From Gammaproteobacteria bacterium (GTDB lineage Bacteria; Pseudomonadota; Gammaproteobacteria; Burkholderiales; SG8-39): a stretch of DNA of 42,927 nucleotides. Position numbers and translations under genes: made by a program. Location: assembly GCA_041493345.1 (NCBI GenBank), contig JBGPYQ010000003.1:1-42927 (forward strand), written 5' to 3'. Shown in pieces: positions 4,641 to 42,229 of this stretch. The first letter of the stretch is position 1; the number at the start of each line of letters is the position of its first letter. The notes under the pieces are model-generated. The model saw nothing but the letters and a program-made list of their open reading frames with translations. It searched no databases and was not told where the DNA came from.

Positions 4641-4871
4641 TTAACGACGAGTGTTTTTCTCCATCTGCTCTGTGATTCGAGTGCTTTCTGTATGGCCCCG
4701 GTCCGGCGCGTCCTTGTCCTCCTGCACGGGCACCCGGTTCTTTTCGATCGCCCAGTCGCCGAGGTCGATCAGCTTGCAGCGCCCGGAGCAGAACGGGCGG
4801 TAGCGGTTTTCGGGGATCCACTGCACCTGCGCGCCGCAGCGCGGGCAGTTCACATGGCGGACCTTGCTCAC
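4641..4871 (-). CDS. yacG: DNA gyrase inhibitor YacG
   Basis: CPRCG...[18 protein letters not shown] zinc motif; follows zapD. Confidence 0.95.
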
Positions 4872-4881
4872 GGAATCAGCG

Positions 4882-18343: not shown

Positions 18344-19360
18344 TCACTTGCGCAGAGTCCCGTAAAAAGCCCGGTACCACTCGGCAAACCGCCTGACACC
18401 GGTTTCGATCGGGGTTTGCGGCTTATAGCCGACCGCCTTCTGCAATTCTCCGGCATCCGCAAAAGTCGCCAGAACATCTCCGGCCTGCATCGGCAGCAGG
18501 TCGAGTTGCGCCTTCTTGCCGAGACATTGTTCGAGCACCTCGATATAACGCATGAGCTTGACCGGCTGGTTGTTGCCGATGTTGAAGATGCGCCAGGGCG
18601 CGTAACTCGTGGCCGGATCCGGGTGATCGCCGCTCCAGCCGGGCGCGGGAGCGGCGGGCTGGCCGATGACCCTCACGATCCCCTCGACGATGTCGTCGAT
18701 GTAAGTGAAATCGCGCACCATGTCCCCGCGGTTGAATACCGGGATCGGACGCCCGGCGAGGATTCCCTCCGTGAACTTGAACAGCGCCATGTCGGGGCGT
18801 CCCCAGGGGCCATAAACGGTGAAGAACCGCAATCCCGTGCACGGCAGCCCGTAGAGGTGGGCGTAGCTGTGCGCCATCAGCTCGTTCGCCTTCTTGGTCG
18901 CCGCGTACAACGAAACAGGGTGGTCGACGTTGTCGTGCTCGGAAAACGGCAACCGGGTGTTCGCGCCGTAGACCGAGCTGCTCGAGGCAAAGACGAGGTG
19001 TCCGACCTTCGAGTGACGGCAGCCTTCGAGCACGTGCGTGAAGCCGACGATGTTGGCGTCGATGTAGGCTGAAGGGTTTTCGATCGAGTAGCGCACCCCG
19101 GCCTGGGCGGCCAGATGCATGACCGCGTCGAATTTGCCGGCGGCGAAGAGCTCGCCCATCGGCTTGCGCTCGACGATGTCGAGCTTCTGAAACCGGAACC
19201 CGGCGCGGGCGAGCAAGCGATCGAGCCGCGCCTGTTTGAGCCGGACGTCGTAATAGTCGTTCAGATTGTCGATGGCGGCGACTTCGTCGCCGCGATCGAG
19301 CAGGCGGTGCGCCAGCGCGGAACCGATGAACCCGGCGGCGCCCGTTACAAGAATCTTCAT
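18344..19360 (-). CDS. NAD-dependent epimerase, UDP-glucuronate 4-epimerase (CapI/Uge-like)
   Basis: MKILVTGAAGFIG, HLAAQAGVRYS, YAATK, LRFFTVYGPWGRPDMA; ATG 19360 overlaps galE stop. Confidence 0.95.
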   Translation of the reverse strand: MKILVTGAAGFIGSALAHRLLDRGDEVAAIDNLNDYYDVRLKQARLDRLLARAGFRFQKLDIVERKPMGELFAAGKFDAVMHLAAQAGVRYSIENPSAYIDANIVGFTHVLEGCRHSKVGHLVFASSSSVYGANTRLPFSEHDNVDHPVSLYAATKKANELMAHSYAHLYGLPCTGLRFFTVYGPWGRPDMALFKFTEGILAGRPIPVFNRGDMVRDFTYIDDIVEGIVRVIGQPAAPAPGWSGDHPDPATSYAPWRIFNIGNNQPVKLMRYIEVLEQCLGKKAQLDLLPMQAGDVLATFADAGELQKAVGYKPQTPIETGVRRFAEWYRAFYGTLRK

Positions 19361-20385
19361 TTTCGATCTTCTTCCCGGTAACCGTGAGGGTTCATGCTTT
19401 GCCATCGCCATGCATCGCGGCACATTTCGTCGAGTTCGCGCACCGCTTTCCAGCCCAGCGCCTTTTCCGCGAGCGACGGGTCCGCATAGCACTCGGCGAT
19501 GTCGCCCGCACGGCGGGCGACCCGCTCGCAAGGTATCGTGCGGCCACTCGCGCGCTCGAAGGCGCGTACTGCTTCCAGCACCGAGATTCCCCGCCCGGTG
19601 CCGAGGTTGACCGTGATCCCGCGCTGTTCGCGTTGCATGGTTTCCATCGCCGCGAGGTGGCCGCGCGCGAGATCGACGACATGAATGTAGTCGCGTATCC
19701 CGGTGCCGTCGCGCGTCGGGTAGTCGCTGCCGAACACGCGCAGCCTGTCGCGAACGCCCGCGGCGACCTGCGCGACATAGGGCATGAGGTTGTTCGGAAT
19801 ACCTTGCGGGTCCTCGCCGATCAATCCGCTCGGATGCGCGCCCGCCGGATTGAAATATCGCAGCAAGGCGATGCGCCAGAGGGCGGGGGCGGAAGCCGCG
19901 AGATCCTCGAGAATCCGCTCGACCATCAATTTCGAATGGCCGTATGGATTGGCGGGAGCGAGCGGCGCATCCTCGCGGATCGGCACCGACGAGGGGCTGC
20001 CGTAGACCGTCGCGGAGGAGGAGAACACCAGCATCCCGACTCGCGCCTGCGCCATCGCGCCGCACAGAACCAACGCGCCCTGCACGTTGTTGTCGTAGTA
20101 TTCGATCGGCTTTTCGACCGATTCGCCCACCGCCTTGAGGCCGGCAAAGTGGATCACGGCGTCAAATCGGGTCCGGGCGAATATGTCCCGCAATGCGACC
20201 GGATCGCGAACGTCTGCTTTCGTGAATTCGGGCGTCTTGCCGGTGATTTGCGCGATGCGTCCGAGCACCGCGGGATGGCTGTTGCAGAAGTTGTCGAAAA
20301 TGGCAACGTCGTGTCCCGCCTGCATCAGCTCGACGCAGGTGTGGGATCCGATATAGCCGGCCCCGCCCGTCACTAGCACTTTCAT
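19357..20385 (-). CDS. galE: UDP-glucose 4-epimerase
   Basis: TGGAGYIGSH, HFAGLKAVGES, LRYFNPAGAHPSG, DGTGIRDYIHV. Confidence 0.98.
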   Translation of the reverse strand: MKVLVTGGAGYIGSHTCVELMQAGHDVAIFDNFCNSHPAVLGRIAQITGKTPEFTKADVRDPVALRDIFARTRFDAVIHFAGLKAVGESVEKPIEYYDNNVQGALVLCGAMAQARVGMLVFSSSATVYGSPSSVPIREDAPLAPANPYGHSKLMVERILEDLAASAPALWRIALLRYFNPAGAHPSGLIGEDPQGIPNNLMPYVAQVAAGVRDRLRVFGSDYPTRDGTGIRDYIHVVDLARGHLAAMETMQREQRGITVNLGTGRGISVLEAVRAFERASGRTIPCERVARRAGDIAECYADPSLAEKALGWKAVRELDEMCRDAWRWQSMNPHGYREEDRK

Positions 20386-21401: not shown

Positions 21402-22682
<1,281 letters not shown>

Positions 22683-22683
22683 C

Positions 22684-22778
22684 AGCACATCGCTGTGGAC
22701 GCTGCTGAGTTTGAGTCGTTCCTGCGCAACGTGATGGGCGCGCGCTCCACGAGCGAAGCGCGGGCGGTAGCCGATTGA
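22684..22778 (+). pseudogene. 3' remnant of XrtA-system asparagine synthase-like amidotransferase
   Basis: Reads STSLWTLL[1-nt deletion]FESFLRNVMGARSTSEARAVAD*, matching the LWxLLMFExFLR C-terminus of AsnB-like amidotransferases. Confidence 0.65.
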
Positions 22779-22788
22779 GACACGCTCC

Positions 22789-24003
22789 ATGCGCGTCATT
22801 CATATTCTCGATCACTCGATCCCGACGCAAAGCGGCTACGCTTTCCGCACGCAGGCGATCCTCAAGGAGCAGCGCGCTCTGGGCTGGGAGACGTTCCATC
22901 TGACCGGCCCGAAGCAGGGGCCGGCCGCGACGACCGAAGAGTGGGTGAACGGCTGGCATTTCTATCGCACGCCTCCTCCCGGCGGGATCCTCGAAGGCGT
23001 CCCGGGGCTTTCGGAACTCGAGCTGATGGGCGAAATCGCCTTCCGCATCGAGCAGGTGGCCCGGCGCGTGCGGCCCCATCTCCTGCACGCCCACTCCCCG
23101 GTCTTGAACGCGATTCCCGCACTGCGAGTGGGGCGGCGGCTCGGCATCCCGGTGGTCTACGAAGTAAGAGTACTCTGGGAGGACACGGCGGTGGACCACG
23201 GTACTCAGGAGGGAGGCTTGCGTTACCGCCTGAGGCGGGGACTGGAAACCTGGGCCCTCAGGCGCGCCGATGCCGTCACCACCATCTGCGACCCGCTGCG
23301 GGATGACATTGTTTCCCGCGGCATCCTGGCCGACAAAGTGACGGTTGTTCCCAACGCGGTGGACGTCGATGCGTTCTCCGCGGGCGGCGCGCCAGATCCT
23401 GCACTGAAGCTGCAACTCGGGCTGGACGGCGCGCAGGTGCTGGGTTTCATCGGCTCGTTCTACGCCTACGAGGGGCTCGCCATGCTGTTGCGCGCCCTGC
23501 AGCAGCTGCTGGCGCAGGACGAGCACGTGCGCGCGCTGCTGGTCGGCGGCGGCTGCCAGGAGGCGGAGCTGAAGCGACTCGCCGCCGAGTTCGGCATCGA
23601 AAATCAAGTCGTTTTCACAGGCCGCGTCCCTCACGACGAAGTGCAGCGCTACTACGACCTCATCGATGTGATCGTCTATCCGCGTCTGTCGATGAGGCTC
23701 ACCGAACTGGTCACGCCGCTGAAGCTGTTGGAAGCGATGGCGCAGGGGCGCGTGGTGATCGCCTCGGACGTCGGCGGGCATCGCGAGCTGATCCGTCACG
23801 GCGAAACCGGGACGTTGTTCAAGGCCGGCGATCCAGAGGCACTGGTATCAGCGTTGCTGGCCCTGCTACGGGACCCCGCGCGCTGGCCGGGCCTCAAGGC
23901 GGCAGCAAGGCGCTACGTCGAGACCGAGCGCAACTGGAAGGCAAGCGTGGCTCGCTACGAGAACGTTTACGCTCGCGTCATGCAACAGCCCAAGCATGCA
24001 TGA
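22789..24003 (+). CDS. GT4 glycosyltransferase, PEP-CTERM/exosortase A-associated (TIGR04063-like)
   Basis: MRVIHILDHSIP, LHAHSPVLNA, GFIGSFYAYEGL, MRLTELVTPLKLLEAMA, SDVGGHRE. Confidence 0.92.
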   Translation: MRVIHILDHSIPTQSGYAFRTQAILKEQRALGWETFHLTGPKQGPAATTEEWVNGWHFYRTPPPGGILEGVPGLSELELMGEIAFRIEQVARRVRPHLLHAHSPVLNAIPALRVGRRLGIPVVYEVRVLWEDTAVDHGTQEGGLRYRLRRGLETWALRRADAVTTICDPLRDDIVSRGILADKVTVVPNAVDVDAFSAGGAPDPALKLQLGLDGAQVLGFIGSFYAYEGLAMLLRALQQLLAQDEHVRALLVGGGCQEAELKRLAAEFGIENQVVFTGRVPHDEVQRYYDLIDVIVYPRLSMRLTELVTPLKLLEAMAQGRVVIASDVGGHRELIRHGETGTLFKAGDPEALVSALLALLRDPARWPGLKAAARRYVETERNWKASVARYENVYARVMQQPKHA

Positions 24004-24101
24004 AGATAATCACGTTCAGCACGCTCTATCCCAATGCCGCGCGCCCGGGCTACGGCATATTGCGCGCTCTGATTGTTGCAATGGTTTGGCTTGCGCCGTG
24101 A
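24000..24101 (+). pseudogene. 5' remnant of a second GT4 glycosyltransferase
   Basis: ATGA-coupled to the upstream stop; MKIITFSTLYPNAARPGYGI resembles GT4 (TuaC-like) N-termini; similarity lost after about 20 codons, stop after 33. Confidence 0.65.
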
Positions 24102-24607
24102 AGGACACGAACTTCAGCCGCCTCGCACCCGAGGCATCGCCCGAGCCACCAGAGTTAGAAGTAGTGATCGAAGTTCCACGCGGCAGCTTTCTGAAGCGCG
24201 GGTCCACCGGCCGCGTCGACTTCATCTCGCCCCTGCCGTGCCCGTTCAATTATGGTTCGGTGCCGGCTTACCTGGGGCTTGAAGGCGATCTCCTGGACGC
24301 GCTCGTGCTCGGGCCGCGCCTGCCGTTCGGAACCCGCATACGGGTCAAGGCGTGGGGCGCCGTAACGTTGACGGACCGCGGCATGACGGACGACAAGCTC
24401 GTCTGCAGCCACCAGCCCCTCACGCCGCCGGAGCGCCGCAACGTGCTGCGGTTTTTCCACTTCTATGCGAAGTGCAAGGGACTGCTTAATTTCTGGCGCC
24501 GCCGCCCGGGGCGCAACGCATGCGATGGCTGGTGCGGAGCCGCCCACGCCCTCGCCCGCGCCCGGCTGCGGGACGACGCGTGGCGGGGGCCGGCGGTCGA
24601 GTTCTGA
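24098..24607 (+). CDS. Short family I inorganic pyrophosphatase-like protein
   Basis: VVIEVPRGS, PFNYG, EGDLLDALVL, DRGMTDDKL, FFHFY. GTG 24098 preferred because the 23996 extension overlaps the GT4 remnant. Confidence 0.8.
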   Translation: MKDTNFSRLAPEASPEPPELEVVIEVPRGSFLKRGSTGRVDFISPLPCPFNYGSVPAYLGLEGDLLDALVLGPRLPFGTRIRVKAWGAVTLTDRGMTDDKLVCSHQPLTPPERRNVLRFFHFYAKCKGLLNFWRRRPGRNACDGWCGAAHALARARLRDDAWRGPAVEF

Positions 24608-24715
24608 TCACTCCATCCTGATCTTCGCCTCGCGCACGATGATCGATCCGATAAAGAAAGCCGCCTGGATCTTTTTAAACACCTATTGACAACACCTCCG
24701 TCCGACTCGCCCAAC

Positions 24716-24732
24716 TGTCGGTTTTTTTTACA
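24716..24732 (+). promoter_or_regulatory. Putative PrsR enhancer box (TGT-N11-ACA), copy 1
   Basis: TGTCGGTTTTTTTTACA; same motif at 24881 and 33194, all upstream of PEP-CTERM genes. Confidence 0.65.
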
Positions 24733-24880
24733 CTACTATTCTCCGCGGAGATCGCGTGCGCTTGATGTCGACGGGGGCTGCACTATGGGTCGCCGACGCA
24801 GCTGATTGATTTTACTGGACTAAACAAACGGGCTTCTCTGCCTGGCGGCCGGTGGTAGCGGTCGGGATGCGTACTCGCCG

Positions 24881-24897
24881 TGTCGGAATTTTTTACA
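24881..24897 (+). promoter_or_regulatory. Putative PrsR enhancer box (TGT-N11-ACA), copy 2
   Basis: TGTCGGAATTTTTTACA, 63 bp upstream of a sigma-54 -24 GG. Confidence 0.7.
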
Positions 24898-24959
24898 GTC
24901 ACTGGCGTGAGTTGACCGTCCCCTCCTACATGCCGTTGATAATAAAGTCTATATTCATA

Positions 24960-24975
24960 GGGCATGGTTTATGCT
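24960..24975 (+). promoter_or_regulatory. Sigma-54 promoter of the ice-binding PEP-CTERM gene
   Basis: GGGCATGGTTTATGCT: GG-N10-GC spacing; IHF-like CATGCCGTTGATA at 24929-24941. Confidence 0.7.
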
Positions 24976-25065
24976 CGATAGCGATAGGAACTATAAGGAA
25001 CTGGCATCCCAGACAATCACGTAGGGGGTGCCGATATGACGCGGTCACACGTTAGGAGAATGAAA

Positions 25066-25938
25066 ATGAACGCTATGAAATTGGCAATACCGTTGTTTGT
25101 CGCAGCACTTGCTTACGGTCCCTCCCAGGGATTGGCGGTGCCAATACTGGGTGCGGATTTGGCGAGCTTTGCGGTCTTGGGCTCCGCGACGGTGACCAAT
25201 GTCCCCACGAGCACCATCGTCGGAAATGTGGGTGTCAGCCCAGGTACCTCGATCACTGGCTTTAACTCCGTATCAGGCCTTGCGACCGCGGACCCGCAGG
25301 TGACAGGAGGACTGGTACAGTCAAACACTGCGCTCGCGGCGTCGGCTCAGGGTCAACTCACCACTGCGAGAGGTACTCTTACATCTCTGGGGGCAGGTAT
25401 CACACTCGGTGCGGACCTGGCTGGACTCACGCTCACTCCGGGCATCTATACGGTTGCAGCGGGGACTACTAATTTGTCGGGAACCCTCACGCTCAACGGC
25501 CTGGGCAACGCCAATGCGTTGTGGGTTTTCCAGATGCCGAGCACGCTCATCACCTCGTCTGGCTCGGTCGTTAACGTGATCAATACAGGTGCGGGCGCCG
25601 GGGTGTTCTGGAATGTCGGCAGCTCCGCGACCCTCGGTTCAACCACTTCGTTCGAAGGAAACATTCTCGCGCTCGCGAGCATCAGCTTGGTCACCGGCGC
25701 AAAAATTGGTTGCGGTAGAGCCCTGGCGGATGTTGGCTCAGTGACCTTGCAACAGAACACCATCTCCATCGGCTGCGCGGGTACCGGGGAGGAGGGCAGC
25801 AACGGCTTGAGCGGCGGCGGCATAGACGTTGTTGGCGGCGTCGCCAGGGTCGTTCCCGAGCCGGGCACCCTGGTGCTTTTCGGCTTCGGGCTGGCGGGGT
25901 TGTTTGTCTCCAGAAAAAAGTTATTTCCCGTCGCTTGA
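25066..25938 (+). CDS. DUF3494 ice-binding-like protein with signal peptide and PEP-CTERM sorting signal
   Basis: FAVLGSATVTN...GNVGVSPGTSITGF, DLAGLTLTPGIY, WVFQMPSTLITSSGS, VFWNVGSSATLG..FEGNILALASI, GRALA..VTL; C-terminal VPEPGTLVLFGFGLAGLFVSRKK; AGGAG RBS before ATG 25066. Confidence 0.92.
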   Translation: MNAMKLAIPLFVAALAYGPSQGLAVPILGADLASFAVLGSATVTNVPTSTIVGNVGVSPGTSITGFNSVSGLATADPQVTGGLVQSNTALAASAQGQLTTARGTLTSLGAGITLGADLAGLTLTPGIYTVAAGTTNLSGTLTLNGLGNANALWVFQMPSTLITSSGSVVNVINTGAGAGVFWNVGSSATLGSTTSFEGNILALASISLVTGAKIGCGRALADVGSVTLQQNTISIGCAGTGEEGSNGLSGGGIDVVGGVARVVPEPGTLVLFGFGLAGLFVSRKKLFPVA

Positions 25939-25953
25939 CGGCTTGACGGCTTT

Positions 25954-25982
25954 GCGCGGCCACCCAGTGCGGGTGGCCGCGC
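25954..25982 (+). terminator. Strong hairpin downstream of the ice-binding gene
   Basis: Perfect 12-bp stem gcgcggccaccc-agtgc-gggtggccgcgc; U-tract weak. Confidence 0.6.
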
Positions 25983-26063
25983 GCTACGTTTCCGGCGGGC
26001 GCGGCCTGTCCTGAAACGGGGAAAGTCCTGCTTTAGTTTGACTTCGCAATACGGGCGCTCGCG

Positions 26064-26342
26064 GACTGCCGGCGCGCCTGCGCAGGGGTGGACCTCGTGC
26101 TCCATCACGCGACCCTGGGCTCCGTGCCCGCTCGATCGAAGATCCTCTGGCGTGTCATGAAGACGTCTTCGCTCGCTGCTGCGGTATGACCTCGATCGGC
26201 CTGAGGTACTTCACATCTTTGGGCCCGCCAGGATCCCGTGGGCGCTTACGCGGCTGTCATTCCGAAGTGGATCGTCCTGTTCATCGGCAGCGAGCCGGTG
26301 TACATAAACGGTGACGGGGAAACCAGCCGCGACTTCTGTTAC
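26064..26342 (+). pseudogene. Deleted and frameshifted WbpP/TviC-like UDP-HexNAc(A) 4-epimerase remnant
   Basis: Patches [75 protein letters not shown]; catalytic YxxxK region absent. Confidence 0.85.
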
Positions 26343-26494
26343 GATCTGACCGTGAGCGGCGCGCTGCTCCTGCTCGCCCTGCCCATCATGCTCCTCGCCG
26401 CGCTATGCATTTACCTGGAAAGCGGCCTGCCTGTGCGCGTCGGTTGACGATGCCATCGAAAACCTTCATGTTGTGGGGAAAGGGAGCCGGATAA
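26343..26494 (+). pseudogene. Remnant of the priming sugar transferase (TIGR03013-like) upstream of prsK
   Basis: [31 protein letters not shown] (start of bacterial sugar transferase domain), VDDAIE, and terminal LWGKGA* in shifted frames. Confidence 0.75.
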
Positions 26495-26528
26495 AAGCCT
26501 TTTAGCCGAGCGGGGACGGACGCAATCG

Positions 26529-28607
26529 ATGGCAATCTCGATCGGGACGGTAAGCTACGCCGCTGCTGCCATGGCGTTTCTTTTTTTATCCGTCCTTCTG
26601 GTGACGACTTGGCGCGGGCGTCTGCAGGGCATGCTGCTCGCCGTGGCCTGCCTGGGTACTGCAATGTGGGCGGGGGTGGCGGCGTATCTGGCTGCGCGAC
26701 CGAATGCGGCCATGCTTGCCGCAGAAGTCCTCGAGATCCTGCGCAGCGCCGTCTGGTTCGCTTTTTTAATGGTGCTGCTCGGCTATTCCCGGAAGGCAGT
26801 GGGGCCTTTGCGGCGGGTCGCTGTGGGCCTCGCGGTGTTTTGCGGGGTTGTCCTCGCTGCTACGCTGTACTCGGGCGTCGTATCGGCCCCGCGTCCGGAA
26901 ATCTTCGGGATACCGGGCCGCCTGGTGCTGGCGGTGATCGGCATCGTGCTGGTCGAGCAGCTTTACCGCAACGTCCAGCCGCAGCAACGGTGGGGGATTA
27001 AGTTCCTGTGCCTGGGGCTCGGCGGAATGTTCGCATACGACTTCTATCTGTACTCCGACGCCCTGTTGTTTCAGCACGTAAACGCCGACATCTGGGCCGC
27101 GCGTGGCGTCGTCAATGCCATAGTCGTTCCGCTGCTCGCCGTGGCAACTGCCCGCAACCCCAAGTGGTCGCTCGATGTCTCCGTTTCGCGCCGCATCCTG
27201 TTCCATTCCACGGCGATGCTCGGCGCCGCAGTGTACCTGCTGGCGATGGCCGCGGCCGGCTACTACATCCGCTACTTCGGCGGCAACTGGGGGGCGATGC
27301 TGCAGGTAACGTTCCTGTTCGGCGCGGTGCTGCTGCTCTTCGTGATACTGTTCTCCGGCACCCTGCGCGCCCGGCTCAAGGTTTTCCTCAGCAAGAACTT
27401 TTTCAGCTACCACTACGATTACCGCGAGGAGTGGCTGCGTTTTACCCGTACCTTGTCCAAGGGCGAACCGGGGGTCCAGCTGTATGAGCGCTCCATCCAG
27501 GCGATCGCCGAGCTGGTGGACAGTTCGGGCGGGGCGTTGTGGCTTTCCCAGGATGTGGGGGTTTTCGAGCAGGTCGCCCATTGGAACATGCCGTCTGCTA
27601 AAGGGAGAGAGCAGCGCGACAGCCCCCTTTGCCAGTTCCTGGAACGGCTCCAGTGGGTCGTCAATCTCGAGGAGTACGAGGCGCAGCCCGAGTTATACGA
27701 CGGCCTGGAGATACCCGATTGGCTGCGCTCAATTCCGCACGCGTGGCTGGTGGTGCCGCTCATACTCCACGAGCGGTTGCTGGGTTTTGTCGTGCTGGCC
27801 CGATCGAAGGGTAAAATCAATCTCGATTGGGAGGTGAACGACCTCTTGAAGACTGCAGGCAGGCAGGCGGCAAGCTACCTGGCCCAGTTGGAGGCGGCAA
27901 AGGCGCTGCTGGTGGCGCGCCAGTTCGAGTCCTTCAACCGCATGTCCGCTTTTGTGGTGCACGACTTGAAGAACCTGGTGTCGCAGCATTCCCTGCTGCT
28001 TTCGAATGCGGATAAACACAAGCACAAGCCCGCGTTCCAGGAGGACATGATCGAGACGGTTGCCCAGTCGGTGGAGAAAATGAAGCGGCTCCTGCTCCAG
28101 CTGCAGGGCGGCTACACTCTGGAGCCCCCGGCACCGGTAGCGCTCGAAGAACTGGTGCAACAGGTGGTGGCCGCGAGGTCTGGCCTCAAGCCTGCTCCCC
28201 GGCTTGAGGCTGGCGATGGCGCGGTGAGCGTGGTCGCCCACCGTGCGCGCCTTGAACGCGTGATCGGGCACCTGATCCAGAACGCCATTGAAGCCACCCC
28301 ACCCGAGGGGCATGTGGTGGTGCAGCTATTGCGGCAAAATGGATCTGCGGTCATCGCGATTGCCGATACGGGGTGCGGCATGAGCGAGCAGTTCATGCGC
28401 TACCGGCTGTTCAAGCCCTTTGAGTCAACCAAGTCAACGGGGATGGGGATCGGCACCTACGAGGCCCGGGAGTACGTACGTGAGCTCGGCGGCCGGATAG
28501 AGGTAGAGACCCGGGAGGCCCAGGGCACCCTATTCCGCGTGGTGCTGCCGCTTTATGTTCCCGAGCGCGCGCCTGAGCTGGGCGTTGCGGTGGAAGGCCA
28601 CGGGTGA
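26529..28607 (+). CDS. prsK: PEP-CTERM system histidine kinase PrsK
   Basis: N-terminal multi-TM region, FFSYHYDYREEWLRF, GAF-like region, H-box FVVHDLKN, HLIQNAIEA, DTGCGM, GMGIG. Confidence 0.96.
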   Translation: MAISIGTVSYAAAAMAFLFLSVLLVTTWRGRLQGMLLAVACLGTAMWAGVAAYLAARPNAAMLAAEVLEILRSAVWFAFLMVLLGYSRKAVGPLRRVAVGLAVFCGVVLAATLYSGVVSAPRPEIFGIPGRLVLAVIGIVLVEQLYRNVQPQQRWGIKFLCLGLGGMFAYDFYLYSDALLFQHVNADIWAARGVVNAIVVPLLAVATARNPKWSLDVSVSRRILFHSTAMLGAAVYLLAMAAAGYYIRYFGGNWGAMLQVTFLFGAVLLLFVILFSGTLRARLKVFLSKNFFSYHYDYREEWLRFTRTLSKGEPGVQLYERSIQAIAELVDSSGGALWLSQDVGVFEQVAHWNMPSAKGREQRDSPLCQFLERLQWVVNLEEYEAQPELYDGLEIPDWLRSIPHAWLVVPLILHERLLGFVVLARSKGKINLDWEVNDLLKTAGRQAASYLAQLEAAKALLVARQFESFNRMSAFVVHDLKNLVSQHSLLLSNADKHKHKPAFQEDMIETVAQSVEKMKRLLLQLQGGYTLEPPAPVALEELVQQVVAARSGLKPAPRLEAGDGAVSVVAHRARLERVIGHLIQNAIEATPPEGHVVVQLLRQNGSAVIAIADTGCGMSEQFMRYRLFKPFESTKSTGMGIGTYEAREYVRELGGRIEVETREAQGTLFRVVLPLYVPERAPELGVAVEGHG

Positions 28608-29983
28608 GGAAAGACCAGGTAATCCTGCTGATCGTCGAAGACGACCCCGGCCTGCAAAAGCAGATGCGCTGGAGCTTCGACGCCTACGAGACGCTGGTCG
28701 CCGGGGATCGCGAAAGCGCGCTGGTGCAACTACGGCGGCACGAGCCGGCAGTAGTGACCCTCGATCTGGGGCTGCCGCCGGATCCGGACGGAGCGTCCGA
28801 AGGGCTGGCCACCCTGGAGCAGATCCTGGCGCTGGTGCCCGACACCAAGGTGATCGTGGTAACCGGCAACCAGGACCGCGCCAACGCGGTGAAAGCGGTC
28901 GGGATGGGCGCCTATGACTTCTACCAGAAGCCGTTCGATCCGGAGGTACTGGGGCTCGTGGTGGAGCGGGCGTTCAGTCTGCACGCCCTGCAGCAGGAGA
29001 ACCGCCGGCTGCAGCAGTCGCAGGACTCCCCGATGCAGGGCATCCTCACGCGAGATCCGGGCATGCTCAAGATGTGCCGCAGCGTGGAGAAGGTGGCGCC
29101 CTCGGACGCCACTGTGCTGCTGCTGGGCGAGTCCGGCGCCGGCAAGGAGTTGCTGGCAAGAGCTCTGCATCGGTTAAGTCCGCGCTCGGCCAAGCGGTTC
29201 GTGGCGATCAATTGCGCGGCGATCCCCGAGAACCTGCTGGAGTCGGAACTCTTCGGCTACGAGAAGGGGGCCTTCACCGGCGCCAACAGGCAGACGCGTG
29301 GCAAGATCGAGTTTGCCGACGGTGGCACGTTCTTTCTCGATGAGGTGGGGGATCTGTCACCCGCCCTACAGGCGAAGATCCTGCGCTTTCTCCAGGAGCG
29401 GGTGGTCGAGCACATCGGCGGGCGCGAAGAGATCCCCGTCGATGTTCGCATCGTGTGCGCGACCCATCAGAATCTGAAAAAACTGATCGAAGAGGGTCGC
29501 TTCCGAGAGGACCTTTACTACCGCTTGAGCGAGATCGTGATCGCCATTCCGCCGCTCCGCGATCGGCACGGGGACGCCGCGCTCCTCGCGCACGCGTTCA
29601 TGCACAAGTTCAGCCGCGAGGAGGGGCGTTCGATCCTGGGCTTCAAGCAGGACGCTCTCCATGCCATAGAAGCCTACCCATGGCCGGGCAACGTGCGGGA
29701 AATGGAAAACTATATCAAGCGAGCGGTCATCATGACCGACGGATCCCGGATCGGCGCCGAGGATCTGGGCCTGTCGGCACCGGCAGGGGAGCCGGAGCCG
29801 GTCAGTCTACGCGAGGTGCGCGACGAGGCCGAGCGCAAGGCAATCATCAAGGCATTGAGCCGGGTCGATGGGAACATCCTGGCCGCAGCGGAACTGCTCG
29901 GGGTAAGCCGTCCCACCCTGTACGACCTGCTCGACCGCCACGGCCTCAAGCAGTCGGTTTCCATCAAGGCAGACGAGGACTGA
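28604..29983 (+). CDS. prsR: PEP-CTERM-box sigma-54-dependent response regulator PrsR
   Basis: Receiver ([14 protein letters not shown]), [21 protein letters not shown], Fis-type [12 protein letters not shown]. Confidence 0.96.
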
Positions 29984-30088
29984 GGCGATGGCGAAGCGGG
30001 TCGGAAACGTGCCGGCCTGCGTTGAGTGGTGTGTCGCCGCGCCGGCAACTGCGTGGATGGATCGCTGTTTAAGAGGGCGGAGGATCGC

Positions 30089-32887
30089 ATGACCCGATCG
30101 AAAGTTTGCTACAGGCATGGCGCGCTGGTCACGGCGCTGCTCATCGTCGTGCTGTCCTCGGGAGGTTGCGGGGAGAAGGCCGAGAATCTCGGCCGGCTGA
30201 TCGCAGACGCCAAGCAGGAGCGCGACAAAGGCAACCATAATGCCGCCATGATCCACCTGAAGAACCTGCTGCAAAAGTCTCCCGAGCACGCGGAGGCGCG
30301 CTACTTGCTGGGCGTGACCTACAACGATACGGGTGATTTCACGTCCGCCGAAAAGGAGTTGCGCAGGGCCCTCGAGCTGCAGTACGACCCGGCCAAGGTG
30401 ATCCCCCCGCTCGGCAAGTCGTTGCTGATGACAGGGGAGTTCCAGAAAGTGCTCGACCAGGTACGACTGGAAGGCGACGCCGGGAACCAGGTGCAGGCCG
30501 AAGTGCTGACGCTGCGCGCGCTGGCATCGATCGGGCTCGGTCGCAGCCGTGAAGGGCGCGAGTTGCTCGAGCAGGCGCTCGCCAGGCAGCCTGAATTCGC
30601 GGATGCGCTGCTCGGGCAGGCCCGGCTTGCGGCGAGCGAGCAGAAGCTGGACGAAGCCGCGCGCCTGATCGAGCGAGCGCTCGCCAGCGCACCGAATAGT
30701 GGCAACGCATGGCTCATGAAGGGCGAACTGAGCCGGATCATGGCCAATCCGAAAGGCGCGATCGCGGCCTACCAGAAGGTCCTCGAGCTCAGCCCCGACA
30801 ACGTTCCGGCCCGACTGAACATCGCTTCGCTGCAGATCGACAGCGGCAACTTCGACGAGGCACGCAAGCAGATCGAGCAGATGCGCAAGATCGTTCCCAA
30901 CAGCCCGATGGCCCATTACATGGAGGGGTTGATCGAGTTCCGCCAGCACAACTACCCCGCCGCCCGCGAGGCGGTGCTGCAAGTGCTCAAGGTGGCGCCA
31001 GACCACATGCCGAGCATGCTGCTCGCGGGTGCGGTCGAGTTTGCGCTGGGTTCGCACGGCCAGGCGCAGTCGTATCTGGGGCGTGTGATCGACCGCGCGC
31101 CCGACAACCTCTACGCGCGCAGGTTGCTGATCGCGTCGCTGGCGAAAAGCGGCCAGGTGCAGCGCGCTCTGGAAGTGCTCCAGCCGGGGCTGAAGCAGTC
31201 CCCGGAAGACGGAGCGCTGATGGGGCTCGCCGGCGAGGTGTACCTGCAGAGCAACGAGTTCGCCAAAGCGGCCCAGTTCTTCGAAAAGGCGGCGAAGCTC
31301 GACCCGAAGAGCGCGGGTGCTCGCACCGGGCTGGGCCTGAGCCGTCTGGCCTCGGGCGAAACGGATCACGCGCTGGCCGACCTGGAGTCCGCTTCGCAGC
31401 TCGATTCCGACAAGTACCAGGCGGACATTCTGCTGGTTCTGTCGCACGTGCGGCAGGCGAACTACGACCAGGCGCTGAAGGCGATGCAGACGCTCGAGAA
31501 GAAGCAGCCGAACAATCCGCTCACCTATAACCTGAAAGCGATGATCTATGTCGGCAAGAAGGACACCGCAGCCGCGCGCAAGCATCTCGAACGCGCGCTC
31601 GAGCTGCAGCCGGCCTACGTGCCCGCGGCGGAGAACCTCGCGCAGCTCGACCTGCAGGAGAAAAATCCCCAGGCTGCGCGCCGCCGGTTCGAGGCGATCC
31701 TCGGGAAGGACAAGGATAACGTGGAGGCGCTGCTCACGCTCGCCAGCCTTGGCCCGCGCATCGGCGCCACCCAGAAGGAACAGATCGACTGGCTGGAGCG
31801 CGCCCGCAAGGCGGGTCCTGGCTCGGTGCAGCCGCAGCTGATGTTGGCGCGCTCTTACGCCCAGGCCGGCGACGCGAAGAAAGCGCTCGAGGCCGCGCGA
31901 CAGGCGCAAGCGATCAGCCCTGATAATTTCGAGGTTCTCGATACGCTGGGCGCGATCCAGATCGCCGCAGGGGAGAAGGAACAAGCGCTGGCGACGTATC
32001 AAAAGCTCGCCATGCTGCAGCCCAAGTCGCCGTCCGCGCTCTACCGTCTGGCCACCGCGCAGGCGGCCAATGCCAACCAGGCGGCGGCTGCGAGCACGCT
32101 GAAAAAGGCGCTGTCGCTGAAGCCGGATTTCAACGACGCGCAGGTGGCGCTGGCCGATCTGGAGGTTCGCTCCGGGCGTTTCCGGGAGGCGATGAAGATC
32201 GCGCGGCAGGTGCAGAAGCAGGCTGCCAAGTCTCCGCTGGGTTTCGTCCTGGAAGGCGACGTGCTGATGGCGGAGAAGAAATTTCCGCAGGCCGCCAAGG
32301 CTTACGAAACCGCCTACGGCATTGGCAAGAGTGGATTGCTCGCCATCAAGATGCACGCGGCATATGCGCAAGCCGGGAAGCCGGACGAGGCGGAGAGGCG
32401 GCTGGCACAATGGCTGAAACAGTCGCCCGACGACGCGGTGGTGCGGTTGTACGCCGCCGACGTCGGCCTCAAGAGCGGCAAGTACCAGAACGCGATCGAG
32501 CACTACGAATGGCTGCTGCAGAAGCAACCCGACAACGTGCTGGTGCTGAACAACCTCGCCTGGGCCTATCAGCAGGTGAAGGACACGCGAGCCCTCGAAA
32601 CCACCGAGCGCGCCTACAAACTCAAGCCCGACAGCGCCGCGGTCGCCGATACGCTGGGCTGGATACTTGTAGAGCAGGGCAACATCAACCGCGGGCTCGA
32701 GTTGCTGCAAAAAGCAGTTGCAGCCGCGCCCGACGCCCACGAGATCCGCTACCATCTCGCTCAGGCTTGGCTCAGGGCCGGCGACAAGTCGAAGGCCCGC
32801 AGCGAACTCGAGCGGTTGCTGGCGACCGATGCGAAGTTTCCGCAGCAGGCCGATGCGATGAACCTGCTCAAGCAGCTGAGAAACTAG
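30089..32887 (+). CDS. prsT: PEP-CTERM system TPR-repeat lipoprotein PrsT
   Basis: Lipobox-like LSSGGC, IHLKNLLQ, many TPRs, LNNLAW, DTLGWIL, EIRYHLA; follows prsKR. Confidence 0.95.
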   Translation: MTRSKVCYRHGALVTALLIVVLSSGGCGEKAENLGRLIADAKQERDKGNHNAAMIHLKNLLQKSPEHAEARYLLGVTYNDTGDFTSAEKELRRALELQYDPAKVIPPLGKSLLMTGEFQKVLDQVRLEGDAGNQVQAEVLTLRALASIGLGRSREGRELLEQALARQPEFADALLGQARLAASEQKLDEAARLIERALASAPNSGNAWLMKGELSRIMANPKGAIAAYQKVLELSPDNVPARLNIASLQIDSGNFDEARKQIEQMRKIVPNSPMAHYMEGLIEFRQHNYPAAREAVLQVLKVAPDHMPSMLLAGAVEFALGSHGQAQSYLGRVIDRAPDNLYARRLLIASLAKSGQVQRALEVLQPGLKQSPEDGALMGLAGEVYLQSNEFAKAAQFFEKAAKLDPKSAGARTGLGLSRLASGETDHALADLESASQLDSDKYQADILLVLSHVRQANYDQALKAMQTLEKKQPNNPLTYNLKAMIYVGKKDTAAARKHLERALELQPAYVPAAENLAQLDLQEKNPQAARRRFEAILGKDKDNVEALLTLASLGPRIGATQKEQIDWLERARKAGPGSVQPQLMLARSYAQAGDAKKALEAARQAQAISPDNFEVLDTLGAIQIAAGEKEQALATYQKLAMLQPKSPSALYRLATAQAANANQAAAASTLKKALSLKPDFNDAQVALADLEVRSGRFREAMKIARQVQKQAAKSPLGFVLEGDVLMAEKKFPQAAKAYETAYGIGKSGLLAIKMHAAYAQAGKPDEAERRLAQWLKQSPDDAVVRLYAADVGLKSGKYQNAIEHYEWLLQKQPDNVLVLNNLAWAYQQVKDTRALETTERAYKLKPDSAAVADTLGWILVEQGNINRGLELLQKAVAAAPDAHEIRYHLAQAWLRAGDKSKARSELERLLATDAKFPQQADAMNLLKQLRN

Positions 32888-33193: not shown

Positions 33194-33210
33194 TGTCGGA
33201 AATTTTTACA
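33194..33210 (+). promoter_or_regulatory. Putative PrsR enhancer box (TGT-N11-ACA), copy 3
   Basis: TGTCGGAAATTTTTACA, 63 bp upstream of a sigma-54 -24 GG, same spacing as copy 2. Confidence 0.7.
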
Positions 33211-33272
33211 CTTCGTTTCCGACCGTTTCAGGCGCTATTCGTAACTATCTGTTTATAAATATTAATTTATTT

Positions 33273-33288
33273 TGGCATGGATTCTGCA
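33273..33288 (+). promoter_or_regulatory. Sigma-54 promoter of the second PEP-CTERM gene
   Basis: TGGCATGGATTCTGCA: GG-N10-GC; preceded by an AT-rich IHF-like tract. Confidence 0.75.
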
Positions 33289-33520
33289 TTGGTAGAGGGC
33301 AAAGGCGCATGGAAGCGGTTTGAATAGATCCATACTTTAGACCCGCTCGGATCGCGGTCCTTTGCCGGGGAGGCGGAAGCGAGCATGAACATAGGCCCAA
33401 TATACGCAGTCCGGGACCTCTTCCACACCTGCTCCCGGCGCGTCGGCTCGGCGAACCGGGATCGCAACCGGTTTGAATTTCCTATGCTCTATTTGAAAAT
33501 TAAATTATTCAAGGATCGAT

Positions 33521-34204
33521 ATGAAAACTAATCACCTTGTTCGTCTTATTTCATCTTTCTCACGGATATGCATGCTTTTTTCAATTCTGGCCTGGTCCGG
33601 TGTTGCCTCGGCAATCCCTGTGACCTGGGATATCATCGGCGCCAGTTTTAATGCCGCGTCGGGAGGTGGATCTGTCACTGGTTCCTTCCAATGGGATGCG
33701 AGTTCACAAACCTTGCTGGACTGGACCGTGACAGTGCCTAACGGAACGTCAATAAGCGGCGACCCCGCACATCCGACTCTATTTCCGGCATTCACGTATA
33801 CCCCCTTAACTTCGATTGGTTGTGGTTTTCCGGCCGGACCTCCTACGGGACAGTGCAATAACACGCAGATGTTTTTTTCTCAGGTATTCACTCCATCGGC
33901 TCCCTGCGAAGTCGGGAATCCGCAGAACTGCGTGTTTGGCCGTACGCTTGGCCTCAACTTCTTCTCCAATCCTTTGACAGACCTTGGCGGTGTTGTTCCA
34001 ATTTCCATTAACTTGTTGTCTTTCGAGTCCTATAGCATCCCCACCGGCTGCGCTCCATTTGCCATGTGTAACGACCGGGAATTCTCTGCCGGTACGGTTG
34101 TTGCCAGGGCGGTTGCTGCGGTTCCGGAGCCGGTTTCCTTGCTTTTGGTTGGGCTTGGATTGATATTTCTCTGGTTCTCACGCCGAAGGATGCGGTCGAT
34201 ATAA
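33521..34204 (+). CDS. PEP-CTERM surface protein of unknown function with three Cys pairs
   Basis: Signal peptide ending GVASA; C-terminal VPEPVSLLLVGLGLIFLWFSRRR; AAGGA RBS. Confidence 0.9.
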   Translation: MKTNHLVRLISSFSRICMLFSILAWSGVASAIPVTWDIIGASFNAASGGGSVTGSFQWDASSQTLLDWTVTVPNGTSISGDPAHPTLFPAFTYTPLTSIGCGFPAGPPTGQCNNTQMFFSQVFTPSAPCEVGNPQNCVFGRTLGLNFFSNPLTDLGGVVPISINLLSFESYSIPTGCAPFAMCNDREFSAGTVVARAVAAVPEPVSLLLVGLGLIFLWFSRRRMRSI

Positions 34205-34875: not shown

Positions 34876-35315
34876 TCCGTCAGAGTCCAGACTGCCCCCG
34901 TTCACGGAGAATTGGAGCAGCAGCAGCGGGTCGGGGCGCGATCTCGCGCCGCCAGGTCGCCTCCTGAGGTACGGATTTACCTCGCGGCGGCGAATTACCG
35001 GGCTGGGCGGCGTCGCGTTAGGCTGTCGCGCTCTTCGATCATTTGAGCGCGCGCTTGAACTCGATGCGGTCACCCGCCTGGCAATCCCGGCAAACGGTCG
35101 CCGGCAATATTGGCCGAGCCGCTCGCCGTGCCAGGCACCTTGAAATGATCCCCCAAGGTCATGGGAATCACGCCTCGGTGATGACCGTTTGCTCGTAGCC
35201 GGTGAATCCAATAAACTCTCGATCAAACAGGTACTAAGAGGATAGAGGTACGAAGAGGTATTAAGAGAAGCGCTAATACGTCTGGTTGATTGATATTGTG
35301 GAAGGAGAACATGCC

Positions 35316-35927
35316 GTGAGCGTCAGGGAATGGTCAGCTATAGGGCTGGTGGCTTTGGTGCTGGGCTTGGGAGGATGCGGTACGGTCTATCCGCCGCTGG
35401 CCGAGCCTGGAAGCGGGATCGATGCGCCGTATCTGGTCGGCCCGGGCGATACGGTCAACATCGTCGTGTGGCGCAATCCCGAGCTGTCCATGATCGTTCC
35501 GGTGCGTCCCGACGGAAAGATCACCACGCCGCTGGTGGAAGATCTGCAAGCAAGTGGCAAGACGGCGACGGAGCTTGCCCGGGACATCGAAAAAACCCTG
35601 GCCAAGTACATCCAGAGCCCGGTGGTCACGGTCATCGCCACCAGTTTCATTGGGCCTTACAGCCAGCAGGTCCGCGTGATCGGCCAGGCGGCCAGGCCCC
35701 AAGCGCTGGCCTATCGTGAAAACATGACCCTTTTGGATGTCATGATCGCTGTGGGCGGCATCACCGATTTTGCGGACGGGAACAACGCAAGCATCCTGCG
35801 CACCGGCGGCGGCAAGACCCAGCAGTTCGGGGTGCGGCTAGTAGATCTCGTCAGGGGGGGCGATCTGTCGGCCAATGTGGCGATGCGCCCCGGTGATGTT
35901 CTGATCATACCGCAGAGCTTTTTCTAG
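35316..35927 (+). CDS. Polysaccharide export lipoprotein, Wza-like (PEP-CTERM system, TIGR03027-like)
   Basis: Lipobox LGGC, YLVGPGD, VWRNPELS, VRPDGKITTPLV, PGDVLIIPQSFF; GTG after GAAGGAG. Confidence 0.94.
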   Translation: MSVREWSAIGLVALVLGLGGCGTVYPPLAEPGSGIDAPYLVGPGDTVNIVVWRNPELSMIVPVRPDGKITTPLVEDLQASGKTATELARDIEKTLAKYIQSPVVTVIATSFIGPYSQQVRVIGQAARPQALAYRENMTLLDVMIAVGGITDFADGNNASILRTGGGKTQQFGVRLVDLVRGGDLSANVAMRPGDVLIIPQSFF

Positions 35928-36065
35928 CCTCTGGTATGGCGAGAATTCGATTCCCCCGACGATATTTCAACTGGAGTCCTGAGCCTTGCGAGTGTTGACA
36001 GGACTCGTTCCTGCCGCAATCCAGGGCATTTCCGGTCGGGTGCCGTCCTGGAACGAGACTTGGCC

Positions 36066-36081
36066 TGGTATGAAATTTGCT
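36066..36081 (+). promoter_or_regulatory. Putative sigma-54 promoter of the chain-length determinant operon
   Basis: TGGTATGAAATTTGCT: GG-N10-GC, about 58 bp upstream of ATG 36139. Confidence 0.6.
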
Positions 36082-36138
36082 GCGATTCTCGGGTTAAGCT
36101 GAGCTGCGCCTGGATGAAAGCACCCGGAGGATCCGAGT

Positions 36139-37683: not shown

Positions 37684-37684
37684 G

Positions 37685-38614
37685 ATGAGCATCATTGAAA
37701 GGGTGGCAGACCTGCTTGGGTCGGTTCCCCAGACGCACCGAAAGCCTTCGGCGGCGGGTGGGGGAGCCGACTCCCTTGAGCCGAACCGGATCGAACGGGC
37801 CGCCGGCGATATAAGCCGGCGCTTTGATTTTCCTGAGGACAAGGATCTCGCGGTGGAATCGAAGGCCAAGGCCAGGCCCGCGCTTCCCACCGGCCCGAGT
37901 ACCCGGACTCACAGGGTCGATCTGGATCAGCTGCGCCGGCAGAGCATCATCACGCCCGACGGCGAACGGACCCCGATCGCCGAGAGTTTCCGGCGCATCA
38001 AGCGGCAGATCCTGACGAACGTGGCCAATCCCAAGGCCGGCGCGCCGGCCAACCTCGTGCTGGTGACGAGCGCGCTGGCGGGGGAAGGCAAGACGTTCTG
38101 CGCGATCAATCTCGCGATCAGCATCGCCTTGGAGATGGACCACACCGTGCTGCTGGTGGACGCCGACGTGGCCAAGCCGTCCGTGCCACAGGCACTCGGC
38201 CTCGAAGCGGAAAAGGGATTGATGGACGTACTGCTCGACCGCCGGATCGACCTGGCGGAGGTGCTGTGGAACACCGACATCGACAAGCTCACCGTCCTGC
38301 CGGCCGGCACGGCGCACCAGCACACCACCGAGCTTCTGGCGAGCGACGCGATGCGCGTGCTGCTACGGGAAATTGCCGCGCGCTACCACGACCGCATCAT
38401 CATCTTCGACTCCCCACCGCTCCTCGCCGCGAGCGAGGCCGGCGTCCTGGCGAGCCAGATGGGGCAGATCGTCATGGTGGTGGAGGCGGGGAAGACCACC
38501 GAAGCGGCACTCAAGGACGCGCTGGGCCGTATCGAAGCGAGCAACGTCGCCGGCTTGCTGCTCAACAAGGGAGAAGGCCCCGGGCTGGGATACTACTACG
38601 GGGGCTATGGCTAA
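37685..38614 (+). CDS. XrtA-associated tyrosine autokinase (TIGR03018-like)
   Basis: Walker A SALAGEGKT, LLVDAD, IIFDSPP, C-terminal Tyr cluster GYYYGGYG. Confidence 0.95.
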   Translation: MSIIERVADLLGSVPQTHRKPSAAGGGADSLEPNRIERAAGDISRRFDFPEDKDLAVESKAKARPALPTGPSTRTHRVDLDQLRRQSIITPDGERTPIAESFRRIKRQILTNVANPKAGAPANLVLVTSALAGEGKTFCAINLAISIALEMDHTVLLVDADVAKPSVPQALGLEAEKGLMDVLLDRRIDLAEVLWNTDIDKLTVLPAGTAHQHTTELLASDAMRVLLREIAARYHDRIIIFDSPPLLAASEAGVLASQMGQIVMVVEAGKTTEAALKDALGRIEASNVAGLLLNKGEGPGLGYYYGGYG

Positions 38615-40193: not shown

Positions 40194-40199
40194 CGCTTC

Positions 40200-42202: not shown

Positions 42203-42229
42203 CACGGCACGCTGTCAAGAACACATTAC

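Follow-up and report, generated by a model that had tools for sequence, protein, structure and literature searches.

The gene at 25066 and its control region

We analysed a stretch of 42,927 nucleotides (nt), contig JBGPYQ010000003.1 of assembly GCA_041493345.1, from a gammaproteobacterium placed in the Burkholderiales (SG8-39); this whole stretch is called the window below. Our subject is a forward-strand gene of the window, encoding a 290-residue protein with an ice-binding-type (DUF3494, or IBP-1) domain and a C-terminal PEP-CTERM sorting tail, together with its upstream region, which contains two TGT-N11-ACA boxes and a sigma-54 type promoter. The gene lies in front of prsK, prsR and prsT, within an exopolysaccharide (EPS) locus of the XrtA type (Table 1). 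Taken together, the results described below make it probable that the gene specifies an IBP-1-fold PEP-CTERM protein under PrsR and sigma-54 control, serving as a component of the cell surface or of the EPS matrix.

The start codon adopted here, the ATG at 25066, agrees with the N-termini of homologues (MNAMKLAIP...). Read by eye, the N-terminus appears to form a signal peptide, with K5, a hydrophobic stretch at residues 6-17 and a putative cleavage site, GLA|VP, at residues 22-26; this site is conserved in an alignment of 35 sequences. The Pfam profile PF11999 (Ice_binding) matches the protein at 157.2 bits (5.9e-46; cut-off 28.7) over profile positions 1-207 of 208, and scores 158.4 bits in a six-frame search. 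At the other end of the protein, PF07589 (PEP-CTERM) is matched at 30.8 bits (2.7e-7; cut-off 20.7) and the NCBIfam model TIGR02595 (PEP_CTERM) at 24.5 bits (cut-off 16). The C-terminus has the PEP motif, the hydrophobic span and the basic cluster of a PEP-CTERM substrate (VPEPGTLVLFGFGLAGLFVSRKKLFPVA), and P264, E265 and P266 vary little or not at all among the 35 aligned sequences, in which an invariant Cys pair and the core residues of the domain are also conserved. Such a C-terminus points to a substrate of an XrtA-type exosortase, destined for the cell surface or the EPS matrix.

An AlphaFold2 model computed from the 35-sequence alignment (mean pLDDT 87.9, pTM 0.82) displays numerous short strands and a single long helix spanning residues 89-107, the arrangement of an IBP-1 solenoid. 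The predicted fold is the canonical IBP-1 (DUF3494) right-handed beta-solenoid with its flanking alpha-helix. A Foldseek search of the Protein Data Bank (PDB) with this model gave 31 matches at E <= 0.001, and all among the matches listed are DUF3494 ice-binding proteins, including 9li0, 6eio, 7bwy, 3uyv, 4nu3, 3vn3 and 3wp9; the next match has an E value of 1.4. The TM-scores normalised to the target range from 0.43 to 0.87, or from 0.72 to 0.87 without the two-domain 5uyt_A. The closest solved relative by sequence is 6eio_A, EfcIBP (1e-28 over residues 25-234), which the model resembles with a Foldseek TM-score to the target of 0.78 at 37% identity. Unlike the protein described here, EfcIBP, which stems from an Antarctic consortium, is secreted in soluble form; its chain has 237 residues and no PEP-CTERM tail.

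Both boxes upstream of the gene also fit the stricter pattern TGTCGG-W8-ACA. A spacer of 63 nt (24898-24960) separates the end of the proximal box (24897) from the GG of the promoter (24961), and 90 nt lie between the promoter end (24975) and the ATG. Transcription would start near 24986. No sigma-70-like promoter was found in 24500-26600. Rfam gave no match at the gathering threshold anywhere in the window, and none in 24600-26600 even at E <= 1, which indicates that the leader contains no known riboswitch or small RNA. For the 71-nt context of the hairpin behind the stop codon, z is -3.3; our terminator scan did not list it because no T-run follows. It is probably a transcript end or a stabiliser.

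The initial annotation of this DNA, made from the letters and their reading frames, had named most of these elements, and the searches bear it out. Its signal peptide, DUF3494-type domain and VPEP tail correspond to the by-eye reading of the N-terminus and to the PF11999 and PF07589 matches at 157.2 and 30.8 bits, and its two TGT-N11-ACA boxes and sigma-54 promoter are found at 24716, 24881 and 24961. The downstream hairpin of about 12 bp proves to have a 13-bp stem at 25953-25983. The distance of about 600 bp to prsKRT is 590 bp, counted from the stop codon to the prsK start at 26529, and the EPS setting is confirmed by the XrtA-type genes around.

Table 1. Features of the window, with positions, strands and supporting details
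Feature	Position	Strand	Details
Distal enhancer box (candidate)	24716-24732	+	TGT-N11-ACA, Haft motif 1 type, TGTCGGTTTTTTTTACA; pattern match
Proximal enhancer box (candidate)	24881-24897	+	TGT-N11-ACA, TGTCGGAATTTTTTACA; starts 80 nt before the -24 GG
Sigma-54 type promoter	24961-24975	+	GGCATGGTTTATGCT; -24 GG at 24961-2, -12 GC at 24973-4
Ribosome-binding site	25054-25058	+	AGGAG, 7 nt before ATG 25066; read from sequence
Ice-binding-fold PEP-CTERM gene	CDS 25066-25938	+	290 aa; open reading frame (ORF) 25036-25938
Signal peptide (predicted)	25066-25137	+	aa 1-24; read by eye
DUF3494/IBP-1 beta-solenoid domain	25174-25764	+	Pfam PF11999
Gly-rich linker		+	between the DUF3494 domain and the PEP-CTERM tail, same CDS
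PEP-CTERM tail	25852-25917	+	VPEP, transmembrane stretch, SRKK; PF07589, TIGR02595
Hairpin	25953-25983	+	13-bp perfect GC-rich stem, 5-nt loop; 15 nt after the stop codon
Second regulon unit (candidate)	33194-34204	+	box 33194-33210, sigma-54 promoter 33274-33288, PEP-CTERM gene 33521-34204
prsK, sensor histidine kinase	26529-28607	+	TIGR02916, 907 bits (cut-off 300)
prsR, sigma-54-dependent response regulator	28604-29983	+	TIGR02915, 749 bits (cut-off 503)
prsT, tetratricopeptide-repeat (TPR) lipoprotein	30026-32887	+	TIGR02917, 941 bits (cut-off 312)
Gene remnant	26238-26447	+	69 codons; apparent in-frame fusion of an epimerase fragment with an EpsB_2-type priming sugar transferase fragment; weak matches
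XrtA-type EPS genes	35286-42925	+	contig ends inside the deacetylase gene
stp3, XrtA-system glycosyltransferase	22789-24003	+	TIGR04063, 612 bits (cut-off 442)
Pyrophosphatase-like short ORF	23996-24607		overlaps the stp3 end; matches the first 92 of 153 Pfam positions
TviB-like UDP-sugar dehydrogenase	21402-22682		upstream of the DUF3494 gene
GalE	19360-20385	-	

One control site at three PEP-CTERM genes

The box was sought on both strands of the assembly, which holds 3.21 Mb in 278 contigs and is 95.7% complete. The pattern TGT-N3-W8-ACA occurs five times, against 0.2 expected under a mononucleotide model; 20 block shuffles of the sequence gave a mean of 0.2 sites and a maximum of two. All five boxes are of the TGTCGG type and are found upstream, no more than 450 nt from the start codon, of the three genes that score above the PF07589 cut-off, two in the window and one on another contig (C104). 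A fourth PEP-CTERM candidate, on contig C208, falls below that cut-off (E 0.27). From the start of the proximal box to the GG-N10-GC element the distance is 80, 80 and 82 nt at the three genes. The boxes on C104 are at 9139 and 9260, the element starting 82 nt after the second, and the other promoter match of the window, at 33274, starts 80 nt after the third box (33194), upstream of the second PEP-CTERM gene. This second gene encodes 227 residues with no other domain match; its leader of about 230 nt is unusually long, and the G+C content at its third codon positions (GC3), 0.54, is very low.

Six promoters were aligned, those of the three genes, that of an orthologue in a sister genome of the genus (G013) and those of two homologues from other Burkholderiales. 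In all six, TGT.G...TTACA and GGC..G..T..TGC are invariant, and the spacer diverges. A weight matrix derived from the five sites gives them 32-35 bits and everything else in the assembly at most 20 bits, a comparison that is partly circular; its weak sites at C168:2692 and C194:9747 lie in front of unrelated genes and were set aside. The two other PEP-CTERM genes thus have the same control region as the DUF3494 gene, and the pattern and weight-matrix scans found no box or promoter of this type before the EPS biosynthesis genes. PrsR itself consists of a receiver domain, a sigma-54 AAA+ domain and a Fis-type helix-turn-helix, judging from its sequence, and is presumably the protein that binds the boxes. 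The genome also contains rpoN. With box, promoter and spacing alike at all three genes, the PrsK/PrsR control suggested by the initial annotation appears well founded. The co-induction of EPS that it had added is not indicated, because the EPS genes have no such box or sigma-54 promoter.

The site matches a published one. Haft et al. (2006, BMC Biol 4:29; PMC1569441) described most PEP-CTERM genes as single-gene operons with long upstream regions. Their proteobacterial motif 1, found via its TTTACA core, is about 17 nt long and sometimes repeated; after a spacer of 62.8 +/- 10.6 nt (range 32-92) follows a 17-nt motif 2, which fits the -24/-12 consensus of sigma-54 and ends on average 71 nt (23-221) before the start codon. 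The site was present at 99 of 167 proteobacterial PEP-CTERM genes and was assigned to PrsR, and its phylogenetic profile led these authors to PrsK, PrsR and PrsT; the cyanobacteria are described in that paper as lacking both PrsKRT and the motif 1/2 system. The locus studied here is alike in its single-gene PEP-CTERM operon, its repeated motif 1 with the TTTACA core and its -24/-12 motif 2, with a 63-nt spacer and 90 nt from promoter to ATG, as well as in the tandem of prsK, prsR and prsT near EPS genes and the presence of rpoN. It differs in its passenger domain, DUF3494, which the main text of PMC1569441 does not appear to name, and in the position of the gene directly upstream of prsK, an arrangement that our own survey of loci shows to be rare.

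The nearest experimental parallel is pepA of Aquincola tertiaricarbonis RN12 (PMC9850573), for which RpoN dependence was shown experimentally and a -24/-12 promoter was mapped; it has an upstream enhancer. A stem-loop precedes prsT there, and PepA shifts EPS from a soluble to a cell-bound state. Both loci have a PEP-CTERM gene beside the prs genes, an RpoN-type promoter preceded by an enhancer, and a stem-loop between this gene and the following prs gene. Unlike our gene, pepA lies upstream of prsT rather than prsK, and its product is not reported as a DUF3494 protein in the available text of that paper.

These precedents bear on what is new. The initial annotation took the regulatory coupling within the EPS locus to be the novel element, a view that has to be given up because Haft et al. 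describe exactly this site for PEP-CTERM genes (PMC1569441), and the RpoN dependence of such a gene has been demonstrated (PMC9850573). PrsR/sigma-54 coupling is the rule for the PEP-CTERM gene class. An explicit statement that a DUF3494 protein belongs to the PrsR regulon was not found in the literature searched, and supplementary tables may list such genes; the membership follows directly from the 2006 description. The combination of DUF3494 with PEP-CTERM, which the initial annotation had already supposed to be catalogued, is both in print (PMC7783341, PMC11645318) and abundant; further cases are reportedly mentioned by Winder in 2023 (PMC9957290). Every part of the arrangement has therefore been described before, and the locus is an ordinary new example, which leaves the current understanding of either system unchanged. 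It does join two bodies of literature, on DUF3494 with PEP-CTERM and on PEP-CTERM with PrsR, between which we found no overlap among the papers listed. A DUF3494 surface protein can, on this evidence, be the defined output of a two-component system, and the gene would be a convenient reporter for what PrsK senses.

Homologues, habitats and transcripts

Relatives of the protein are numerous: in a collection of 5.8 billion proteins, with 8000 candidates scored, at least 4187 were found at E <= 1e-10. Both Pfam domains are present in 96 of the best 120, and some relatives already bear the JGI name 'ice-binding like protein/PEP-CTERM motif-containing protein'. Among species-representative genomes, all nine homologues at 50-70% identity have a PEP-CTERM tail at their C-terminus. 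We further collected 80 homologue loci. A P[ETAS]P tail was recognised by a regular expression in 66 of them, the other 14 having VPLP-type or other hydrophobic-basic tails; VPLP, VPIP or VPVP replaces VPEP in several close homologues (loci L121, L129, L136-L138, L147, L164, L167, L171 and L184), which suggests that one passenger domain goes together with several versions of the exosortase-type sorting signal. This genome has a second DUF3494 gene, on contig C149 (900-1778 of locus L194), encoding 292 residues with a signal-peptide-like N-terminus and a Gly/Pro/Asn-rich C-terminus without a PEP-CTERM tail; it has no box, the genome's only boxes being the five PEP-CTERM-linked sites.

The control region was sought in the 77 homologue loci whose upstream sequence is 300 nt or longer, as TGT-N3-(at least six of eight A/T)-ACA followed 60-115 nt later by GGYRYR-N5-TGCH. 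Such a pair occurs at six of the 77, compared with one pair in 1.56 Mb of background, the remaining sequence of the same loci; boxes alone number 16 in the 39.9 kb upstream of homologues and 11 in the background. A second, differently relaxed expression for the box gave a pair at five of the 77. These counts are lower bounds, because both expressions missed the G013 orthologue, whose box and promoter are seen by eye and whose box centre is richer in G+C (TGTCGGGCCTTCTTACA). By their record titles the pair-positive loci belong mostly to Betaproteobacteria (Rhodoferax, Thiobacillaceae, Burkholderiales). From these sequences, some betaproteobacterial members of the subfamily that combines DUF3494 with an exosortase tail appear to be wired into the PrsR/sigma-54 regulon.

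Public sequencing runs point to a sediment habitat. Parts of the window occur in 24 runs, and the eight that contain at least half of the sampled words are all labelled sediment metagenome (runs with a share below 0.2 were not used for habitat). Contigs from RNA libraries of four sediment metatranscriptome runs, from four studies, cover the ORF at 90-99% likeness; in one of the four, X18, the pieces extend over 25025-25964, some with 2-5 differences per 120-170 nt, and the parts of 24300-26700 without such cover (24705-24866 and 26001-26243 among them) are no evidence of transcript ends. These contigs fit transcription of this gene, or of close relatives, in sediments.

A surface or matrix role, the alternatives and the surrounding genes

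We propose that the DUF3494 PEP-CTERM gene forms by itself one transcription unit of the PrsK/PrsR regulon. PrsR in its phosphorylated form would occupy both TGTCGG-W8-ACA boxes and switch on sigma-54 RNA polymerase at the GG-N10-GC promoter, which lies 80 nt further downstream. The GC-rich hairpin in front of prsK would mark the end of the transcript. With its IBP-1 passenger domain and a mass of about 27 kDa, the protein would be exported by the Sec pathway and then sorted through its PEP-CTERM tail by an XrtA-type exosortase to the cell surface or the EPS matrix. There, the flat face of the solenoid may bind an ordered surface, and the protein may help to tie EPS to cells, as the floc protein PepA does. 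PrsR binding, sigma-54 dependence, exosortase processing and the surface location are all inferred. Our analysis favours a matrix or surface role, with ice binding as a possible but secondary property, because PrsR control is common to the other PEP-CTERM genes and because PepA offers a precedent.

The strongest alternative is that the protein truly binds or adheres to ice, is anchored in the EPS and is co-induced with it, so that the cell would build a cryoprotective or ice-adhesive matrix. The fold and the sequence do match proteins with proven ice activity. Raymond, Janech and Mangiagalli (2021; PMC7783341), who counted at least 23 DUF3494 and PEP-CTERM proteins in GenBank, measured ice-binding activity for one such protein of Nostoc sp. 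HG1 (nIBP). As in the protein described here, where the signal peptide is a putative one, nIBP couples a signal peptide to one canonical DUF3494 domain followed by a PEP-CTERM tail, and its organism has an EpsH/EPS cluster; it differs in being cyanobacterial, Antarctic and of measured activity, whereas ours belongs to a sediment betaproteobacterium and is known from its sequence. PEP-CTERM tails are also common in ice-binding proteins of Arctic sea ice and in non-canonical DUF3494 proteins of icy habitats (Raymond 2024; PMC11645318). The record titles of some homologue loci point the same way, naming Colwellia, Puniceibacterium antarcticum and certain series of glacier-associated metagenome-assembled genomes (MAGs).

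Other results count against an ice ligand. The sample habitat, which the initial annotation had proposed to check, does not favour it, since the runs in which this DNA occurs carry the labels sediment and freshwater sediment. Records titled Tepidiphilus (a MAG), Thiohalophilus thiocyanatoxydans, Ferrovum myxofaciens, Nitrosomonas oligotropha and Zoogloea contain homologues at 55-67% identity; none of these is known as a taxon of cold habitats. Raymond (2024) reported DUF3494 in hundreds of bacteria from non-freezing habitats such as lake sediments, groundwater and hot springs, where its function is described as unknown and may be binding to other surfaces (PMC11645318). The co-induction with EPS that this alternative calls for meets EPS genes without box or sigma-54 promoter of this type, and a full-length orthologue is present in just one of 24 other genomes of the genus. 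We therefore regard the ice-adhesion explanation as unlikely, and it is equally unlikely that ice is what the protein binds in the life of this sediment organism. Ice binding that can be measured in vitro is a separate matter; the DUF3494 family is not known to have a sequence motif diagnostic of ice activity, and such a putative activity is possible, with the odds somewhat against it.

The wider subfamily invites a more speculative idea. DUF3494 proteins with exosortase tails are found widely among the Proteobacteria and Acidobacteriota of sediment and soil, some of them in taxa whose habitats do not freeze. Their primary job may be the organising or anchoring of the EPS matrix, or mineral binding, with the polar ice-binding proteins as a derived offshoot of a matrix protein; we hold this tentatively and consider it rather doubtful. 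The present gene offers a way to ask whether ice, polysaccharide or minerals are what proteins with the ice-binding fold bind in non-polar bacteria.

Several observations weigh against the proposed surface or matrix protein under PrsR control. The box/promoter pair is seen in a minority of homologues (6/77 or 5/77, depending on the expression used). The NCBIfam equivalog NF045625 (IBP_CFB) scores 65.8 bits against a cut-off of 400, so that the protein is not a member of it. The sigma-54 promoter match alone is within chance, since GGCAYG-N5-TGCW is found twice in the window with 0.69 expected, and at least twice in 15 of 100 shuffles; the significance of the control region arises because boxes, promoter and spacing combine. 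The hairpin has no U-tract. The RNA contigs are Logan assemblies, in which relatives or DNA carry-over are possible, and they give neither transcript ends nor levels. Finally, two genes are missing: neither an exosortase (searches with TIGR03109 and PF09721) nor an intact priming transferase of the Bac_transf family (PF02397) was found in the 278 contigs, so that the PEP-CTERM system could be defective, or the missing genes could lie in assembly gaps.

The last point leads to a second alternative, that the gene is decaying or orphaned cargo in a degenerating PEP-CTERM island, its product unsorted or non-functional. Besides the missing exosortase and priming transferase, the remnant between the DUF3494 gene and prsK speaks for it. 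This apparently fused epimerase/EpsB_2 fragment matches PF01370 (E 0.056) and PF02397 (E 0.06) weakly and positions 252-289 of 443 of TIGR03013 at 2.3e-4, also a weak match; its DNA is 71-75% similar to the genes of relatives, and it is the only trace of an EpsB_2-type transferase in the assembly. The system is moreover accessory in the genus as sampled, with PrsK in three of 31 genomes, this one included, and XrtA in two of 30 others. The GC3 of the DUF3494 gene, 0.67 compared with about 0.8 for its neighbours, suggests a foreign origin. Against decay, the ORF, the tail, both boxes, the promoter, prsK, prsR and prsT are all intact, as are at least eight XrtA-system genes that score above their equivalog cut-offs; the invariant Cys pair and the core residues are conserved, and RNA-library contigs lie on the ORF. 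The absence of an exosortase is probably an assembly gap, because the contig breaks off within the EPS locus, the assembly is in many pieces and the XrtA of G013 is itself a fragment at a contig end. The loss of the priming transferase at the site of the remnant looks real. On balance, we find an orphaned or decaying gene improbable.

That the boxes and promoter are chance matches in front of an ordinary PrsR-independent promoter, for which the commonness of the promoter pattern alone would speak, is highly improbable, given five boxes with 0.2 expected, all of them in front of PEP-CTERM genes with a constant distance of 80-82 nt to a -24/-12 element, cores conserved across six promoters, no sigma-70-like promoter in the region searched and a site that matches the published one (PMC1569441).

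The position next to prsK is a different question from the control by PrsR. The initial annotation had suggested a survey of how often such genes neighbour prsKRT, and the outcome speaks against a general linkage. Among 80 prsK loci with flanks of up to 4 kb, tblastn (E <= 1e-5) detected no DUF3494 homologue; one of these loci (L041) is the G013 contig, broken just beside its ice-binding-protein gene. Among the 80 homologue loci, prsK, prsR or prsT lies within 6 kb in one, again from the sister genome G013 (L118), where prsK stands beside an orthologue encoding a 77-81% identical protein. A smaller set of nine homologue loci, examined in the same way, gave the same single positive (there numbered L005). 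A TPR protein in L119 (32% identical) was not taken as prsT, nor a sigma-54 activator in L168 (37% identical) as prsR. Adjacency to prsK is thus rare and lineage-specific, being shared with one sister genome only. In the G013 locus (L118, about 4840-5256), another PEP-CTERM gene and a hairpin precede the orthologue, in the place taken here by stp3 and the pyrophosphatase-like ORF.

The closest PrsK relatives come, by record titles, from uncultured Betaproteobacteria of soil, groundwater and a series of glacier-stream MAGs, and the PrsK of Sulfuricella is at 67%. Another genome of the genus, G022, has PrsK and no TIGR03109 match, its prsK lying among unrelated genes; we considered this neighbourhood as a candidate for the ancestral arrangement and found it uninformative, the upstream genes being unrelated and without boxes.

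The first 19 kb of the window hold housekeeping genes (secA, argJ, zapD, pilC, ffh, ribBA, thiL). The EPS genes at its far end encode an export protein, a chain-length determinant, a tyrosine kinase, an outer-membrane protein, an ATPase, WecB and a deacetylase. Between the two, the sequences flanking stp3 (22682-22771 and 23997-24061) adjoin, within about 40 bp or less, in four genomes of the same genus (G046, G002, G021 and G015), which suggests that stp3 was inserted here. The DNA of the pyrophosphatase-like ORF has matches of 82-84% on other contigs of several genus genomes, suggesting that this ORF was relocated to its present place.

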